Assembly (NCBI GenBank): GCA_037130755.1
Contig: JBAXSI010000002.1
Span: 47,621-111,620, forward strand
Origin: Actinomycetes bacterium
Lineage (GTDB): Bacteria; Actinomycetota; Actinomycetes; S36-B12
Direction of reading: 5' to 3'
DNA length: 64,000 bases
Part shown: piece after piece, positions 10,230 through 35,191 of the stretch
How the letters are laid out: each line of letters begins with the position of its first letter
Numbering within the stretch: the first letter of the stretch is position 1
The notes under the pieces: model-generated
What the model was told of the DNA's origin: nothing
Databases searched by the model: none
Seen by the model: the letters and a program-made list of their open reading frames with translations, nothing else
Translations under genes and position numbers: made by a program

Positions 10230-11649
10230 GCCCATTCGCATCGCCAACTGCAGCGGGTTCTTTGGCGACCGCATCGATGCGGCTCGCGAGATGGTCGAAG
10301 GCGGCCCCATCGACGTCCTCACCGGCGACTGGCTCGCCGAGTTGACGATGCTCATCCTGGCACGCCAGAAGATGAAGCACGGCAACGGTTTTGCTCGCAC
10401 CTTCATGACCCAGATGGAACAGGTCCTGGGCACCTGCCTCGATCGTGGAATCCGCGTCGTCAGCAACGCCGGCGGCCTCGATCCCGAAGGGCTCGGGGCG
10501 GCGGTGCATGAGCTGGCTTCGACACTCGGACTCAGCGTGAGTGTGGGTGTGGTCAGTGGCGACGACATCGCACCTCGGCTCGGCGACCTTGCGTCGACCG
10601 GCGAGGAGTTCATCAACCTCGACACCGGCGAGACCATGGCCGGCGCGGGTGTGCACCCGATCACGGCCAATGCCTACATCGGCGGCGAGCCGATCACCGC
10701 GGCACTCGACGCCGGCGCGCAGATCGTGATCACCGGACGCGTGACCGATGCTGCGCTCGTCATCGGGCCTGCGGCCTGGCGCCACGGCTGGGACTACTCA
10801 GCCGCCCGCGCGGGCGACGCGCAGATGCTCGATGCACTGGCTGGCGCACTCGTGGCCGGGCACGTCATCGAGTGCGGCGCGCAAGCCACTGGCGGCAACT
10901 ACGCGTTCTTCACGCAGGTGCCTGGCCTGGAGCACCCGGGCTTCCCCATTGCGGAGGTCGCTGCCGACGGCAGCAGCGTGATCACCAAGCACGAGGGCAC
11001 GGGCGGCATGGTCACTGTGGGCACCGTCACGGCGCAACTGCTCTACGAGGTCGCCGGGCGTGAGTACTTCAATCCCGACGTCACGGCCCTGTTCGACACG
11101 ATCCACCTCGATCAGGTGGGCCGCGACCGCGTGCTCGTGAGTGGGTCGACCGGCGCTCAACCGCCCGAGCGGCTCAAGGTCGCGATGAACTACCTCGGCG
11201 GTTTCCGCAACACGCTGACCCTCGTGATCACCGGGGGACTGGTCGAGGAGAAGGCCGACCTGGCCCTGCGCGCCTTCGCCGGGGTGACGCTGGCGGATGC
11301 CAGTGCACTCGGCGCGGCAGACCTCGCCGCGAAGTCGTCGCTGGAAGTCGCCGAACTGACTGCTCAGCTCCAGCGCAGCCCGCACACTGACCCGGCCCTG
11401 CCCGCCGACGCGCAATCGTTCCTGCGGATCACGGTCAAGGACCCCAACGACAAGGTGGTGGGCAAGGCCTTCACCGAGCCGCTCATCGAGGCGGCGTTGG
11501 CCTCGTACCCCGGCTACTTCCCGACCACGCCGCCGGGTCCAGCTGCGCCGTACGGCGTCTATTGGCCCACCACGGTGTCGCGCGACGCGGTTACGGCGAT
11601 TGCCACGGTCGACGGCGAGCAGGTCTGGTCAGGCGGTGCGTCGTCGTGA
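10222..11649 (+). CDS. AtuA-family (DUF1446) acyclic-terpene-utilisation protein, N-terminal module
   Basis: IRIANCSGFFGDRIDAAREMVEGGPIDVLTGDWLAELTM is the typical AtuA N-terminus. Start ATG 10222 overlaps the end of the alpha subunit. Confidence 0.8.
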   Translation: MAEPIRIANCSGFFGDRIDAAREMVEGGPIDVLTGDWLAELTMLILARQKMKHGNGFARTFMTQMEQVLGTCLDRGIRVVSNAGGLDPEGLGAAVHELASTLGLSVSVGVVSGDDIAPRLGDLASTGEEFINLDTGETMAGAGVHPITANAYIGGEPITAALDAGAQIVITGRVTDAALVIGPAAWRHGWDYSAARAGDAQMLDALAGALVAGHVIECGAQATGGNYAFFTQVPGLEHPGFPIAEVAADGSSVITKHEGTGGMVTVGTVTAQLLYEVAGREYFNPDVTALFDTIHLDQVGRDRVLVSGSTGAQPPERLKVAMNYLGGFRNTLTLVITGGLVEEKADLALRAFAGVTLADASALGAADLAAKSSLEVAELTAQLQRSPHTDPALPADAQSFLRITVKDPNDKVVGKAFTEPLIEAALASYPGYFPTTPPGPAAPYGVYWPTTVSRDAVTAIATVDGEQVWSGGASS

Positions 11650-24785: not shown

Positions 24786-26345
<1,560 letters not shown>

Positions 26346-26409: not shown

Positions 26410-26625
26410 ATGACCACGCAGGTCTTCAAGGTTTCCGGCATGACGTGCGAGCACTGCGTCGCGTCCGTCACTGAGGAGCTCACCGAGCTTCCGGGCGTCG
26501 GGGCCGTGAATGTCGATCTGGTCCCCGGTGAGGTCTCGTCCGTGACCGTCGAGAGCGAGGCCGAGCTCGACGCCGCTGCGGTGCGTGCCGCGATCGACGA
26601 AGCCGGCTACGAACTCGTCGACTAG
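26410..26625 (+). CDS. copZ: heavy-metal-associated (HMA) domain protein, CopZ-like
   Basis: 71 aa with the GMTCEHC metal-binding motif and a ferredoxin-like pattern. Confidence 0.85.
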   Translation: MTTQVFKVSGMTCEHCVASVTEELTELPGVGAVNVDLVPGEVSSVTVESEAELDAAAVRAAIDEAGYELVD

Positions 26626-26661: not shown

Positions 26662-27819
26662 GTGCCCGACTTCGATGTTGACGCAATAGACCTAGCCGAA
26701 CTCCGCACGCGCCGCAGCGCGAAGTGGCGCGAGTTCCCGCCGGACGTGCTGCCCTCGTGGGTCGCCGAGATGGACTTCCCACTCGCGACACCCATCGCCA
26801 CCGCGCTGCGCAATGCGATCGACCGCTCCGACACCGGATACCGCTCCTTGCTGGGCCTGCCACAGGCACTGTCGCTGTTCGCGGCCCGTTCGTGGAACTG
26901 GTCGGTGGACCCGGCCGACGTGCTGGTCGTGCCGGACGTGGTCTCCGGACTCGTGCATGCCGTCAACGTCTTCACCGAGCCGGGCGACGGGGTCGTCATC
27001 AACCCGCCCGTCTATCACCCCTTCTTCATGGTGGTGGACGACGTTACGCACCGGACCGTGGTCGAGGTCCCGATGGCTCGCGCCGACGACGGCAGCTACT
27101 CCCTGGACCTCGATGCACTGGCACTGGCGTTCGCGCGCCCTGACGTGACGGCGTACATCCTCTGCAGCCCCCACAACCCCTCCGGCAGCGTGCCGACGCG
27201 CGCAGAACTGGAGACGATCAGCTCGCTCGCCGAGCAGCACGGCGTTGCCGTGATCTCCGATGAGATCCATGCACCCCTCGTGATGCCTGGCGCCCAGCAC
27301 GTGCCGTACCTGACGGTCGCTCCCGATCATGCCCGGGCAGTGACCGTGATCTCCGCGTCGAAGGCGTGGAACATCCCCGGCCTGAAGTGCGCGCAGATCG
27401 CTACGACGCCCGAGGTGTCCGCCGAGTTCGCGCGTCGGTTGCCGCTGGAGATGTCGTTCGGCACAGGGCACTTCGGGGTGATTGCGCAGATCGCCGCGTA
27501 CATGGACGGAGCAGAGTGGCTTGAGCAGGTCGTCGGGATCCTTGACGGGAACCGTCGCCTCCTGACGGAGTTGCTGGCCGCCCGGCTGCCGCTTGCGGGC
27601 TACGTCACACCACAGGCCTCCTATCTGGCCTGGCTCGACCTCGCCGCTTACGGGCTGGGCGATGACCCCGCTGAGGTGATCCGCGAACGGGCGCAGCTGG
27701 CCCTCAGTCCCGGCCTGAGCTTCGGCAGGCAGGGTCGAGGCTTTGCCCGACTGAACTTCGGGACGTCCCCCGTTCTGGTGGCCGAGATTGTCGATCGGCT
27801 GGCTTCCGTGGTGCAATAG
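26662..27819 (+). CDS. class I/II aminotransferase of the MalY/PatB C-S lyase type
   Basis: AEMDF, NPHNPSG and SASKAWNIPGLK (PLP lysine) are typical of cystathionine beta-lyase PatB/MalY. Confidence 0.8.
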   Translation: MPDFDVDAIDLAELRTRRSAKWREFPPDVLPSWVAEMDFPLATPIATALRNAIDRSDTGYRSLLGLPQALSLFAARSWNWSVDPADVLVVPDVVSGLVHAVNVFTEPGDGVVINPPVYHPFFMVVDDVTHRTVVEVPMARADDGSYSLDLDALALAFARPDVTAYILCSPHNPSGSVPTRAELETISSLAEQHGVAVISDEIHAPLVMPGAQHVPYLTVAPDHARAVTVISASKAWNIPGLKCAQIATTPEVSAEFARRLPLEMSFGTGHFGVIAQIAAYMDGAEWLEQVVGILDGNRRLLTELLAARLPLAGYVTPQASYLAWLDLAAYGLGDDPAEVIRERAQLALSPGLSFGRQGRGFARLNFGTSPVLVAEIVDRLASVVQ

Positions 27820-32434: not shown

Positions 32435-32590
32435 CCAGCCTTTGCTCACGCGAGTCCTAGCCTTGCTCCGCGAAGGCAGAGCCTTCGCTCACGCGATTCC
32501 TAGCCTTGCTTCGCGAAGGCAGAGCCTTCGCTCACGCGATTCCTAGCCTTGCTCCGCGAAGGCAGAGCCTTCGCTCACGCGATTCCTAGC
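32435..32590. repeat. 43-bp tandem repeat: degenerate half copy, 3 near-identical full copies, then a 4-nt remnant; each unit holds hairpin GCGAAGGC-AGA-GCCTTCGC
   Basis: Full copies at 32458-32500, 32501-32543 and 32544-32586 differ at one position only (c/t). Unit: tagccttgctccgcgaaggcagagccttcgctcacgcgattcc. Confidence 0.9.
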
Positions 32591-32946
32591 GCACGGGGCG
32601 ACACGGCCGCCGCGATCTCCTCGCTGGCCACGCGCAGGCCTTCGCCGCGCTCGCGTGGGTAGTGCCGCGAGTCGAGCCGGGCGTAGATGTGCTCGCGGTC
32701 CTCTTCGGACAGCCCGCCCCAGACGCCGTACGGCTCACGGGCGCGCACGGCGTAGTCGGCGCATTCCATGCGGACGTCGCAGCTTGCGCAGACGATCTTG
32801 GCGGCCCGATCACGACGGGCTCGCGACGAGCCGCGCTCGTTCTGCGGGTGGAAGAACAGGAGCGGGTCGGCCTCACGGCATGAGCCGTGCTCCTGCCAGT
32901 GCCACTGGGCATCCTTGGGCACCTGTGCCAGCGGTTGCTGGGGCAT
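32575..32946 (-). CDS. WhiB-family Fe-S transcription factor (WhiB3/WhiD-like)
   Basis: WHWQEHGSC...LFFHP...ERG...AKIVCASCDVRMEC...EPYGVWGGLSEEDRE. The stop codon and last 5 codons lie inside the tandem repeat. Confidence 0.85.
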   Translation of the reverse strand: MPQQPLAQVPKDAQWHWQEHGSCREADPLLFFHPQNERGSSRARRDRAAKIVCASCDVRMECADYAVRAREPYGVWGGLSEEDREHIYARLDSRHYPRERGEGLRVASEEIAAAVSPRALGIA

Positions 32947-33054: not shown

Positions 33055-33444
33055 CTAGGCTTCCGTGTCCCCTGTATCGGACGGATCTGCTGACTTTGCG
33101 AGCGATTCGCGAACTTCGTCCATGTCCACGCCGCGGATGGCCTGGATGAGGTTCGTCAGGGCCTGCTCGGGCAGCGCGCCGGCCTGCGAGTACAGGACCA
33201 CGCCGTCGCGGATGGCCATGAGGGTGGGGATCGAGGAGATGCCGAAGGCGCTGGCCAGGCCCTGCTCGGCCTCGGTGTCGACCTTGGCGAAGACGATGTC
33301 GGGGTTGGCGCCGGAAACGGTCTCGTAGACCGGGCCGAACTGGCGGCAGGGGCCGCACCACTCGGCCCAGAAGTCGACCAGCACGATCGGGTTGCCCTCG
33401 ATCGTCCCGGCGAAGGTGGACTCGGTCACGTTGATGGTCGTCAT
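33055..33444 (-). CDS. trxA: thioredoxin with an acidic C-terminal extension
   Basis: FWAEWCGPCRQ active site. Start ATG 33444 (MTTINVTESTF). The longer ORF-track start was rejected. Confidence 0.9.
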   Translation of the reverse strand: MTTINVTESTFAGTIEGNPIVLVDFWAEWCGPCRQFGPVYETVSGANPDIVFAKVDTEAEQGLASAFGISSIPTLMAIRDGVVLYSQAGALPEQALTNLIQAIRGVDMDEVRESLAKSADPSDTGDTEA

Positions 33445-33454
33445 GACCCCAAAT

Positions 33455-33470
33455 ATACCCCTTGGGGTAT
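33455..33470. promoter_or_regulatory. second CsoR-type palindrome ATACCCC-TT-GGGGTAT
   Basis: Perfect 7-bp arms, 10 nt upstream of the thioredoxin ATG (minus strand) and 57 nt upstream of ATG 33528 (plus strand). Same half-site as the box at 26052. Confidence 0.5.
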
Positions 33471-33527
33471 TGCCGCGCGACGATCGGCCCGGCGACGCCC
33501 AGGGCGGGGAAGGCCTACAATCCGCCC

Positions 33528-33806
33528 ATGACTTCCGAGCCGCTCGAGACCCCGGGCCTGTCCGGCGGGACCCTGCTGGAGGAGCGCACATCGCTCACCA
33601 ACGACGACGGGGACCACGAGCGGTTCGCCCACTACGTCCAGAAGGACAAGATCGTCGAGAGTGCCGTCACCGGCACGCCCGTCAAGGCCCTGTGCGGCAA
33701 GACCTGGGTGCCCGGTCGGGATCCGTCGAAGTTCCCGATCTGTCCCGACTGCCAGAAGATCCACGCCGGGCTTCCGCGCGGTGGCGGTTCCGGGAACGAC
33801 TCCTGA
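33528..33806 (+). CDS. DUF3039-like small zinc-ribbon protein
   Basis: HERFAHYV...KALCGKTWVPGRDPSKFPICPDC matches the conserved actinobacterial DUF3039 pattern. Confidence 0.75.
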   Translation: MTSEPLETPGLSGGTLLEERTSLTNDDGDHERFAHYVQKDKIVESAVTGTPVKALCGKTWVPGRDPSKFPICPDCQKIHAGLPRGGGSGNDS

Positions 33807-33847: not shown

Positions 33848-35191
33848 GTGTGGGGTGCTGAGCACCGCGCACTGACAATCGGCATCGTCTCGCTCGTCAC
33901 CCTCTTCGCCTTCGAGGGCATCGCCACCACGACGGCGATGCCGGCGGTCGCGAAGGATCTCGATGCCCTCGGCGGCTACACATGGGCGTTCAGCGCCTAC
34001 GTGGCTGCCTCGCTCATCGCCATGGTCGGCGGGGGGCTGTGGGCGGACGCTTCCGGACCGCGTGATCCGCTCGTGGCGAGCGTCGTCACGTTCGCGGCAG
34101 GCGCCACCGTAGCCGGGCTGGCCCCGGGGCTGCCGCTGCTGGTGGCGGGCCGGGCGCTGGAGGGCCGCGGAGGAGGGGCGCTCATCGTCGGCCTCTACGT
34201 GTTGATCGCGCGGGCCTACTCCGTCCAGCAACGGCCCAGGGTGTTCTCCGTGGTGTCCGCCGCCTGGGTGATCCCGTCGCTGGTGGGACCGCTCCTGGCC
34301 GGGTGGCTGACGGACAACGTGTCCTGGCGCGCGGTGTTCTTGCTCGTACCGGTGTTCGTGATCCCGCCGGCGATCCTGCTCTTCCCGCGCATCCGTGGGC
34401 TGCACGAGGGCGTGCCGCACGCCTCGACGCGGACCAGGCTGATCGCGGGACTCGCTGCGACGTTCGGGCTGTTCGCGGTCCAGGACGGCGTCCTTCGACT
34501 GTCCGTGGCGGGTGGGGTCGAGTTCCTGATCGGCGTCGTCGTGCTCCTCGTCTCGTTGCGCTACCTCCTGCCACACGGCGCTCTCGTCCTTCGCCGCGGA
34601 CTGCCGACGACGGTCATGATGCGCGGCTTCCTGTCGGGTGCCTTCTTCGCCGCCGAGGTGTTCCTTCCGCTGGCCCTCGTGCAGATCCGCGACCTGTCCA
34701 TCACGCAGGCGGGTCTCGTGCTCGCCGCCTCGGCGACCATGTGGTCGATCGGGTCCTTTCTCCAGGCCCGGATCCCAGGGGACCGGGACCGCGGTGCCAC
34801 CGTGCGCGCGGGCGCCCTGCTCATCGCGGCGTCGGTTCTGACGCTGCCGCTATGCCTGCTGCCGGCCGTGCCCCCGTGGATCGCCGCGTTCTCCTGGGCG
34901 GTCGGGTCGCTCGGCATGGGGTTGGCCATGCCCTCGATTGCCGTTCAGGTCATGCGGTTGTCCCCGGAGTCGGACCAAGGCATCAACAGCGCCGCCATCC
35001 AGATCATCGACTCGGTCACCGTGGTCCTCGCGGTGTCGATCCTGGGACTGGGCCACGCCCAGGCCGTGGCCGCGGGCGGTGCCACGGCGGCCACCTACAC
35101 CGTGCTCTGGCTCGGCGCCGGCGCCCTGGCGCTGGTGGGGGCAGCGGTCGCCGGACGCATGCGACCTTTGTCTATCGATATAGCCGGGTAA
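33848..35191 (+). CDS. MFS transporter
   Basis: 12-14 TM-like helices starting at GTG 33848 (VWGAEHRALTIGIVSLV). Upstream part of ORF 33392 rejected. Confidence 0.8.
   Translation: MWGAEHRALTIGIVSLVTLFAFEGIATTTAMPAVAKDLDALGGYTWAFSAYVAASLIAMVGGGLWADASGPRDPLVASVVTFAAGATVAGLAPGLPLLVAGRALEGRGGGALIVGLYVLIARAYSVQQRPRVFSVVSAAWVIPSLVGPLLAGWLTDNVSWRAVFLLVPVFVIPPAILLFPRIRGLHEGVPHASTRTRLIAGLAATFGLFAVQDGVLRLSVAGGVEFLIGVVVLLVSLRYLLPHGALVLRRGLPTTVMMRGFLSGAFFAAEVFLPLALVQIRDLSITQAGLVLAASATMWSIGSFLQARIPGDRDRGATVRAGALLIAASVLTLPLCLLPAVPPWIAAFSWAVGSLGMGLAMPSIAVQVMRLSPESDQGINSAAIQIIDSVTVVLAVSILGLGHAQAVAAGGATAATYTVLWLGAGALALVGAAVAGRMRPLSIDIAG

Follow-up and report, generated by a model that had tools for sequence, protein, structure and literature searches.

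A putative operator of a His-less CsoR-family repressor upstream of an actinobacterial thioredoxin gene

The thioredoxin gene and its operator-like repeat

Divergently arranged in the 64-kb stretch of DNA analysed here (referred to as the window; GC content of about 68%) are a thioredoxin gene, trx (33055–33444, minus strand), and a DUF3039 gene (33528–33806, plus strand; PF11238). The thioredoxin, the predicted regulated target, has 129 residues, the WCGPC active site (read as WAEWCGPC) and an acidic C-terminal tail of about 25 residues; it matches PF00085 with 84 bits and TIGR01068 with 98.6 bits (cutoff 96.8), in agreement with a thioredoxin fold and active site. A WhiB-family gene (32575–32946, minus strand) follows trx after 108 nt in the same orientation, and beyond the DUF3039 gene lies an MFS transporter gene (33848–35191). 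The starts of trx and of the DUF3039 gene were set by translation and by agreement of the N termini with homologues. Profile matches to PF00085 and TIGR01068, PF11238 and PF02583 bear out the gene identities given in a preliminary description of this DNA for the thioredoxin, the DUF3039 protein and the regulator considered below.

Between the two divergent genes is an inverted repeat at 33455–33470 (in the context ...caaatATACCCCTTGGGGTATtgcc...), which reads ATACCCCTTGGGGTAT, or ATACCCC-TT-GGGGTAT. It is separated by 10 nt (33445–33454) from the trx ATG at 33444 on the minus strand and by 57 nt (33471–33527) from the DUF3039 ATG at 33528 on the plus strand, as the preliminary description had it. 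The same description called the repeat a perfect 16-bp palindrome; its 7-bp arms are indeed perfect inverted copies, but the central TT is a 2-bp spacer that is not self-complementary (the reverse complement, ATACCCCAAGGGGTAT, has AA in the centre), so the site is not a true 16-bp palindrome. A twin box at 26052–26067, ATACCCCTGCGGGTAT or ATACCC-CTGC-GGGTAT, lies 7,403 bp away, matching the 7.4 kb given earlier.

Both boxes are intergenic, fit the formula ATACC-N6-GGTAT and have the form of the type-2 operators of the CsoR family, TAC-CCCTTGGG-GTA and TAC-CCCTGCGG-GTA. The twin precedes the sole PF02583 (CsoR-family) gene of the window, which has its own, putatively autoregulatory copy of the box upstream. 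Pattern scans that allowed mismatches returned these two sites only, in keeping with the earlier remark that no other such palindrome occurs in the window: ATACCC-N4-GGGTAT with up to two mismatches and ATACC-N5-7-GGTAT with up to one mismatch each matched the two boxes alone in 64 kb, and TACCC-N2-8-GGGTA matched twice against 0.09 matches expected, a count reached in none of 100 shuffles. The repeat before trx is thus an operator-like element unique in the window apart from its twin.

A strict scan for E. coli-type sigma-70 promoters and terminators around both boxes returned neither; because the consensus scan was empty, the promoters of trx, the regulator gene and the DUF3039 gene were assigned by hand from TANNNT hexamers. 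On the trx strand the spacer reads ...GGCAATACCCCAAGGGGTATATTTGGGGTCATG, and its sole TANNNT hexamer is TATATT (33452–33457, minus strand), the putative −10 element, which lies 7 nt before the ATG and whose first three bases (TAT) are the end of a box arm. In the relatives described below, a TACACT, TAGACT or TACGAT hexamer stands 6–7 nt before the trx ATG, with the −10-like hexamer 2–5 nt after the box. The box at 33455–33470 is likely to overlap the core promoter of trx at its −10 element, a geometry that it shares with the regulator's own box. No SigR/SigH motif (GGAAT-N16-19-GTT) was found within 300 nt upstream of the window's trx, and the gene seems to use a sigma-A-type −10 element embedded in the box arm.

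Leaderless transcripts are established in Actinobacteria, and a −10 element just before the ATG is the layout expected of a leaderless gene; judged by the 7 nt between the two, the trx transcript is apparently leaderless. The regulator gene (26073–26087), trx (33442–33457) and the DUF3039 gene (33516–33530) all have a TANNNT hexamer 6–7 nt before the start, without Shine–Dalgarno-like spacing, and all three genes look leaderless.

A reading in which the DUF3039 gene is the one regulated from the box was considered and rejected. That gene has a −10 hexamer of its own, TACAAT (33516–33521), 6 nt before its ATG; about 65 nt separate its start from the box centre upstream, and wherever the two genes have become separated it is trx that keeps the box. 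DUF3039 is therefore probably not controlled from this site.

The regulator and its operon

Following the twin box is the gene for a CsoR-family (PF02583) repressor (26085–26345, plus strand). The box lies 17 nt upstream of the ATG, and a TACACT hexamer (26073–26078) is placed 5 nt after the box and 6 nt before the ATG. The protein carries Cys35, Gly60 at the position of the histidine ligand, Cys64, an RLKR DNA-binding motif and the C-terminal sequence EKLFLSLA. Cys35 and Cys64 correspond to Cys36 and Cys65 of Mycobacterium tuberculosis CsoR, and Gly60 aligns with its His61 (SGLQQC compared with NHLETC), so that the regulator had rightly been called His-less. In place of the Cys-His-Cys ligand set for Cu(I) (C36/H61/C65 in M. 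tuberculosis), it has Cys35, Gly60 and Cys64, and because the defining His ligand is missing it falls outside the class of Cu(I) CsoRs. The first cysteine is preceded by Ser, whereas copper CsoRs have Tyr there.

Two cysteines about 29 residues apart and no His or other metal ligand constitute the x-C-x-C fingerprint of CstR-like proteins, and the His position (Y of the fingerprint) is G or A in 15 of 15 subfamily members inspected. Among solved structures the best match is CstR of Enterococcus faecalis (7MQ1, E = 6e-11), ahead of the copper CsoRs; the best NCBIfam match, a weak one, is RicR (40 bits against a cutoff of 175). By its fingerprint, its operator and the gene neighbourhoods of its subfamily, the regulator would fit the CstR-like class.

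Downstream of the regulator by 64 nt is a gene for a CopZ-like HMA metallochaperone (MTCEHC; 26410–26625, plus strand). The intervening gap contains no box and no promoter-like or terminator-like site, and copZ is probably co-transcribed with the regulator. Next on the same strand is a PatB-family C-S lyase gene (26662–27819, plus strand; TIGR04350, 308 bits, below the cutoff of 340). In the syntenic loci it is always found downstream of the regulator or of cop genes on the same strand, and in two of them (L087 and L090) it starts 4–5 nt after the regulator's stop codon; it is likely to be a further member of the operon. For a repressor that would sense thiols or persulfides, a cysteine/cystine C-S lyase as operon partner is suggestive. 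Divergent from the regulator, 70 nt from its box, is an MFS gene (24786–25982, minus strand). Absent from the 64 kb of the window are copA, a second PF02583 gene and genes for rhodanese, persulfide dioxygenase (PDO) and DUF302.

Conservation in close syntenic relatives

Six syntenic metagenomic loci (L087–L092) were reached through regulator homologues of 74–90% identity; in near-identical contigs the boxes are identical to those of the window, which itself derives from the MAG of an uncultured member of the Actinomycetota. The regulator box is kept in all six relatives, with its end 18 nt ahead of the ATG and a TAnnnT hexamer after it. The N6-spaced box before trx is kept in five of the six (L087, L088, L089, L091 and L092), with varying inner bases (CCCTAG, CCCGGG and CCTAGG). 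Across the seven syntenic genomes, with regulator identities of 74–100%, the regulator box is thus present in 7/7 and the trx box in 6/7. The box, the TAnnnT hexamer and the ATG form the conserved blocks, and the spacers have otherwise diverged (mean column identity of 53–66%). Absence of the box before trx in relatives that keep the regulator had been named beforehand as an observation that would speak against an operator; in five of six it is present. The exception, L090 (16847–16930), has lost the trx box and kept the regulator with its own box, which shows turnover of this predicted member of the regulon.

Gene order around the boxes varies. In L089 and L092 a methyltransferase gene is inserted between trx and the DUF3039 gene, and the box remains directly before trx. 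The adjacency of trx and the WhiB-family gene is kept in L081–L088 and L090–L092 and is absent in L089; an E. coli-type scan found no terminator-like site between the two genes in the window, and the WhiB-family gene may be co-transcribed with trx and thereby share its box. Taking the place that the MFS gene has in the window is, in three relatives, a CMD/AhpD-like gene divergent from the regulator (L088, 9582–9956; L089, 6337–6711; L092, 9582–9956), with its start codon only 10 nt from the regulator box. The geometry of the window's trx, a −10 element embedded in the arm followed by 7 nt and the ATG, is repeated at this gene in L088, and with 6 nt in L092.

The relatives also differ in the copper genes that follow the regulator. 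Directly after the His-less gene, L092 has a canonical C-H-C CsoR (DAYC...DEHLRHC; 10298–10635) with copZ-copA. The canonical gene has its own 17-bp N7 box, ATACCCCTAGGGGGTAT, whereas the His-less gene and trx of the same locus have 16-bp N6-spaced boxes with one arm mismatch each. In L088 the His-less gene is followed after a 9-nt gap by copZ-copA and in L091 by copA, with no second PF02583 gene within 10 kb in either; of copZ and copA, the window contains just the former, and both are missing from L087 and L090. The simplest reading of this graded pattern is stepwise loss of a neighbouring csoR-copZA unit, of which csoR was lost in L088 and L091, copA in the window and the whole unit in L087 and L090. 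Genes for rhodanese, PDO/CstB, TauE or SQR are not associated with the regulator in the window or in L087–L092.

Thioredoxin homologues in other actinobacteria

A genome scan with the thioredoxin protein gave, among the matches listed, at least 47 actinobacterial loci at 51–63% identity and at least 33 more distant ones; the best identity among them, 63%, is that of no close relative. Of the 47 loci among the matches listed, 15 have an exact ATACC-N6-GGTAT in the 300 nt that precede the thioredoxin homologue, against 0.007 expected from shuffles, an enrichment of about 2000-fold. Around the more distant thioredoxin genes among these matches, 550 kb of sequence contain no exact box.

At several loci trx and the regulator are neighbours. 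In L013, L040, L042 and L043 a His-less regulator, 43–60% identical to that of the window, is encoded directly downstream of trx; these proteins have G or A at the His position and end in LFLSLA (MFMKLA in L042). In L021 (Georgenia daeguensis) and L041 (Isoptericola variabilis) the order is trx, DUF302 gene, regulator, and further exact boxes precede genes for rhodanese and for MBL-rhodanese (persulfide-dioxygenase-like) fusions. L009 has the regulator in divergent orientation to a small Cys-rich open reading frame, which is followed by trx and an MBL-rhodanese gene, and at further loci rhodanese or DUF302 genes follow the thioredoxin homologue. Members of the regulator subfamily are thus associated with genes of persulfide detoxification (rhodanese, MBL-rhodanese and DUF302, with boxes, in L009, L021 and L041). 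The pairing of box, regulator subfamily and thioredoxin subfamily is therefore old and widespread, and it keeps company with a sulfane-sulfur detoxification gene set.

The small Cys-rich reading frame, of about 60 codons (MCRxxxCRTCxKTTWAGCGQHVD...), adjoins boxed trx genes and often stands between the box and trx. It has no match in Pfam and is found in L009 (9785–9973) and L006 (1807–1992, minus strand), and also in L011, L012, L020, L021, L030 and L040.

Upstream of the thioredoxin homologue, 27 of the 47 loci among the matches listed carry the SigH/SigR-type motif GGAAT-N16-19-GTT, here with N17-19 spacers. The box follows just after the GTT in L003, L005, L013, L016, L021 and L041 and lies inside the promoter spacer in L026, L040, L042 and L047, with GGAATACC merging the −35 element with a box arm. 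This arrangement suggests that in such species trx may be under dual control by a SigH/SigR-type promoter and a CsoR-type box.

Relation to known regulators

The closest described parallel is ScCsoR (SCO0620) of Streptomyces coelicolor, a two-Cys sensor of sulfane sulfur that binds ATACC-N6-GGTAT in electrophoretic mobility shift assays and is released by polysulfide through its two cysteines (PMC7533328). Like it, the window's regulator is an actinobacterial PF02583 protein that lacks the His ligand and has its two cysteines 29 residues apart. Autoregulation is predicted here too, and the putative operators follow the same formula for arms and spacing and probably lie over promoters. Rhodanese and PDO-like genes lie beside ScCsoR and likewise beside homologues of the window's regulator. 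The two differ in that the described ScCsoR regulon comprises PDO, rhodanese, TauE and ScCsoR itself, with no thioredoxin, and in that copZ and a C-S lyase gene follow the regulator in the window. Fakhoury et al. assigned the x-C-x-C fingerprint to persulfide sensors and placed ScCsoR in SSN cluster 3 of the CsoR superfamily, a large and largely uncharacterised actinomycete cluster that includes Rv1766 (PMC8643695); a literature search on Rv1766 found nothing relevant. The window's regulator is a candidate member of this cluster.

The CstR proteins of Firmicutes (Staphylococcus aureus, E. faecalis 7MQ1, Streptococcus pneumoniae and S. mitis) share the x-C-x-C fingerprint and TAC...GTA operators with C/G tracts, and these repressors are released by persulfide-driven cross-linking of their cysteines. 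They come from a different phylum, the S. mitis CstR operator, ATACCCTTATGGGGTAT, is one base longer (N7) than the window's boxes, and their targets are sulfurtransferases, CoA persulfide reductase, PDO and SQR, not thioredoxin.

Copper-sensing CsoR and RicR proteins (Streptomyces lividans, M. tuberculosis) resemble the window's regulator in fold family, in the RLxR DNA-binding motif and in the type-2 TAC/GTA operator. The operators of S. lividans CsoR, TAC-N9-GTA, have N7 spacing and are one base longer (PMC3902906), whereas the ricR operator, TACCCCGCTGGGTA, has the N6 spacing of the window's boxes (PMC3944814) and is almost identical to box 1 of the window; copZ and copA neighbours, too, occur in the window's lineage. 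Unlike these proteins, the window's regulator has no Cys-His-Cys site for Cu(I) (His is replaced by Gly60), and no thioredoxin is among the regulon members named for them (PMC3902906, PMC3944814). A rule by which N6 would mark persulfide sensors and N7 copper sensors was considered and rejected, as ricR has N6; its validity is limited to L092 and to the comparison with S. lividans CsoR. Operator spacing alone cannot identify the inducer, because a copper sensor also uses N6.

Thioredoxin genes of the SigR/SigH regulons of Actinobacteria have GGAAT-N16-19-GTT promoters (PMC3489674). The thioredoxin subfamily considered here is a classical thiol-stress gene, since 27 of the 47 homologues among the matches listed carry this motif; the window's trx differs from these SigR/SigH-controlled genes in having none. 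In S. coelicolor, thioredoxin-related removal of sulfane sulfur has been attributed to AdpA (PMC9952706). The open literature searched contains no description of a thioredoxin as the target of an actinobacterial CstR-like repressor.

A predicted thiol-responsive regulon and its alternatives

Judged from sequence comparison, the repeat at 33455–33470 is very probably a binding site of the nearby cysteine-based CsoR-family repressor, and we consider it likely that it is the operator of a CstR-like repressor with trx as a conserved target. This agrees with the preliminary description, which had read the repeat as a second operator of the His-less regulator and had placed trx in a thiol- or persulfide-stress regulon. 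Supporting that reading are the retention of the box in five of six relatives, its presence at 15 of 47 thioredoxin homologues among the matches listed (0.007 expected), and the loci in which trx is co-operonic with a His-less regulator, beside boxed rhodanese, MBL-rhodanese and DUF302 genes.

From the features above we infer a course of events that runs from binding and promoter occlusion at a leaderless start to the nature of the inducer. The reduced, tetrameric repressor (26085–26345) would bind ATACC-N6-GGTAT, a site that appears to overlap the −10 element and the −10/−35 spacer of the apparently leaderless trx promoter; given this position of the operator, the bound repressor should block RNA polymerase. 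From the box at 26052–26067 the same repressor would shut down its own operon (regulator, copZ and patB). Modification of Cys35 and Cys64, for which persulfides and polysulfides or other thiol oxidants are the likeliest agents, would cause the repressor to leave the DNA, and the thioredoxin then induced would act as a reductant of persulfides, polysulfides and disulfides, whether of proteins or of low-molecular-weight compounds. Such a predicted target is in line with biochemical evidence for persulfide reduction by thioredoxins. The best candidate for the inducer is a persulfide or some other thiol oxidant, and copper is its main rival.

That the repeat is a chance palindrome without function, or simply part of an AT-rich promoter element, has in its favour that only 14 bases are specified and that the site falls where the GC-rich spacer has its highest AT content, a place in which a −10 element would be expected in any case. 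We regard this as extremely improbable in view of the two sites found where 0.09 were expected, the persistence of the box in five of six relatives within diverged spacers, its roughly 2000-fold enrichment before thioredoxin homologues among the matches listed and its co-occurrence with the regulator. Inverted repeats can also fold, and a different palindrome-binding factor is formally possible; it is nevertheless very unlikely that the repeat serves as a hairpin within a 5′ leader RNA or as the site of an unrelated DNA-binding protein. The predicted RNA fold of the region is no better than that of shuffles (z = −1.14), no Rfam family matches at E ≤ 1, and a loop of 2 nt on a 7-bp stem is sterically unfavourable; a leaderless trx transcript would, moreover, not include the repeat. 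An unrelated factor is hard to reconcile with a motif that equals published operators of the CsoR family (PMC7533328, PMC3902906, PMC3944814).

Closer to the preferred reading is a functional CsoR-family operator whose signal is Cu(I), sensed either through the two cysteines of the His-less protein or by a canonical C-H-C CsoR or RicR-type protein encoded outside the window, so that trx would be a copper-stress gene. Copper genes are indeed the regulator's companions: it is followed by copZ in the window, where rhodanese, persulfide dioxygenase and DUF302 genes are absent, by copZ-copA at 9 nt in L088 and by copA in L091, and no second PF02583 gene lies within 10 kb in these two relatives. The copper sensor RicR uses an operator of the same spacing (PMC3944814) and supplies the regulator's best, if weak, NCBIfam match, and the rest of the genome beyond the window may encode another CsoR-family protein. 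We nonetheless hold a copper signal to be unlikely. His61 is replaced by Gly and the Tyr before the first Cys by Ser, the RicR model scores 40 bits against its cutoff of 175, and CstR is reported to be unresponsive to Cu(I) in cells (PMC8643695). The canonical CsoR-copZA unit of L092 carries a separate N7 box, distinct from the N6 boxes of the His-less gene and trx, and elsewhere members of the regulator subfamily keep company with trx, rhodanese, PDO-like and DUF302 genes.

A persulfide-responsive or otherwise thiol-responsive operator before trx allows a wider and more speculative proposal, which we put forward tentatively, as possible rather than probable. In this freshwater actinobacterial lineage the two-Cys His-less repressor may, once the canonical CsoR was lost, have taken control of a copper module made up of copZ and, in relatives, copA; one thiol-reactive switch would then co-induce copper handling, the C-S lyase and trx. 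More broadly, the thioredoxin subfamily could serve a reactive-sulfur regulon of actinobacteria as its dedicated persulfide reductase and, in many species, be wired to both a SigH/SigR-type promoter and a CstR-like operator.

The CsoR-family persulfide sensors of actinomycetes form a large group with few characterised members, and the one studied, ScCsoR, has a regulon without a thioredoxin. The loci described here yield a concrete regulon prediction in which a specific thioredoxin subfamily is a recurrent direct target, and thus belongs to the regulon as a rule and not as an oddity. At some loci it shares an operon with the sensor and adjoins rhodanese and PDO genes. In many species the operator is layered on SigH/SigR-type promoters. 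That a His-less sensor can stand immediately before copper-efflux genes prompts one to ask whether the responses to copper and sulfur stress are connected, and L092 places two paralogous CsoR-family repressors in one locus, with operators that differ by one base of spacing.
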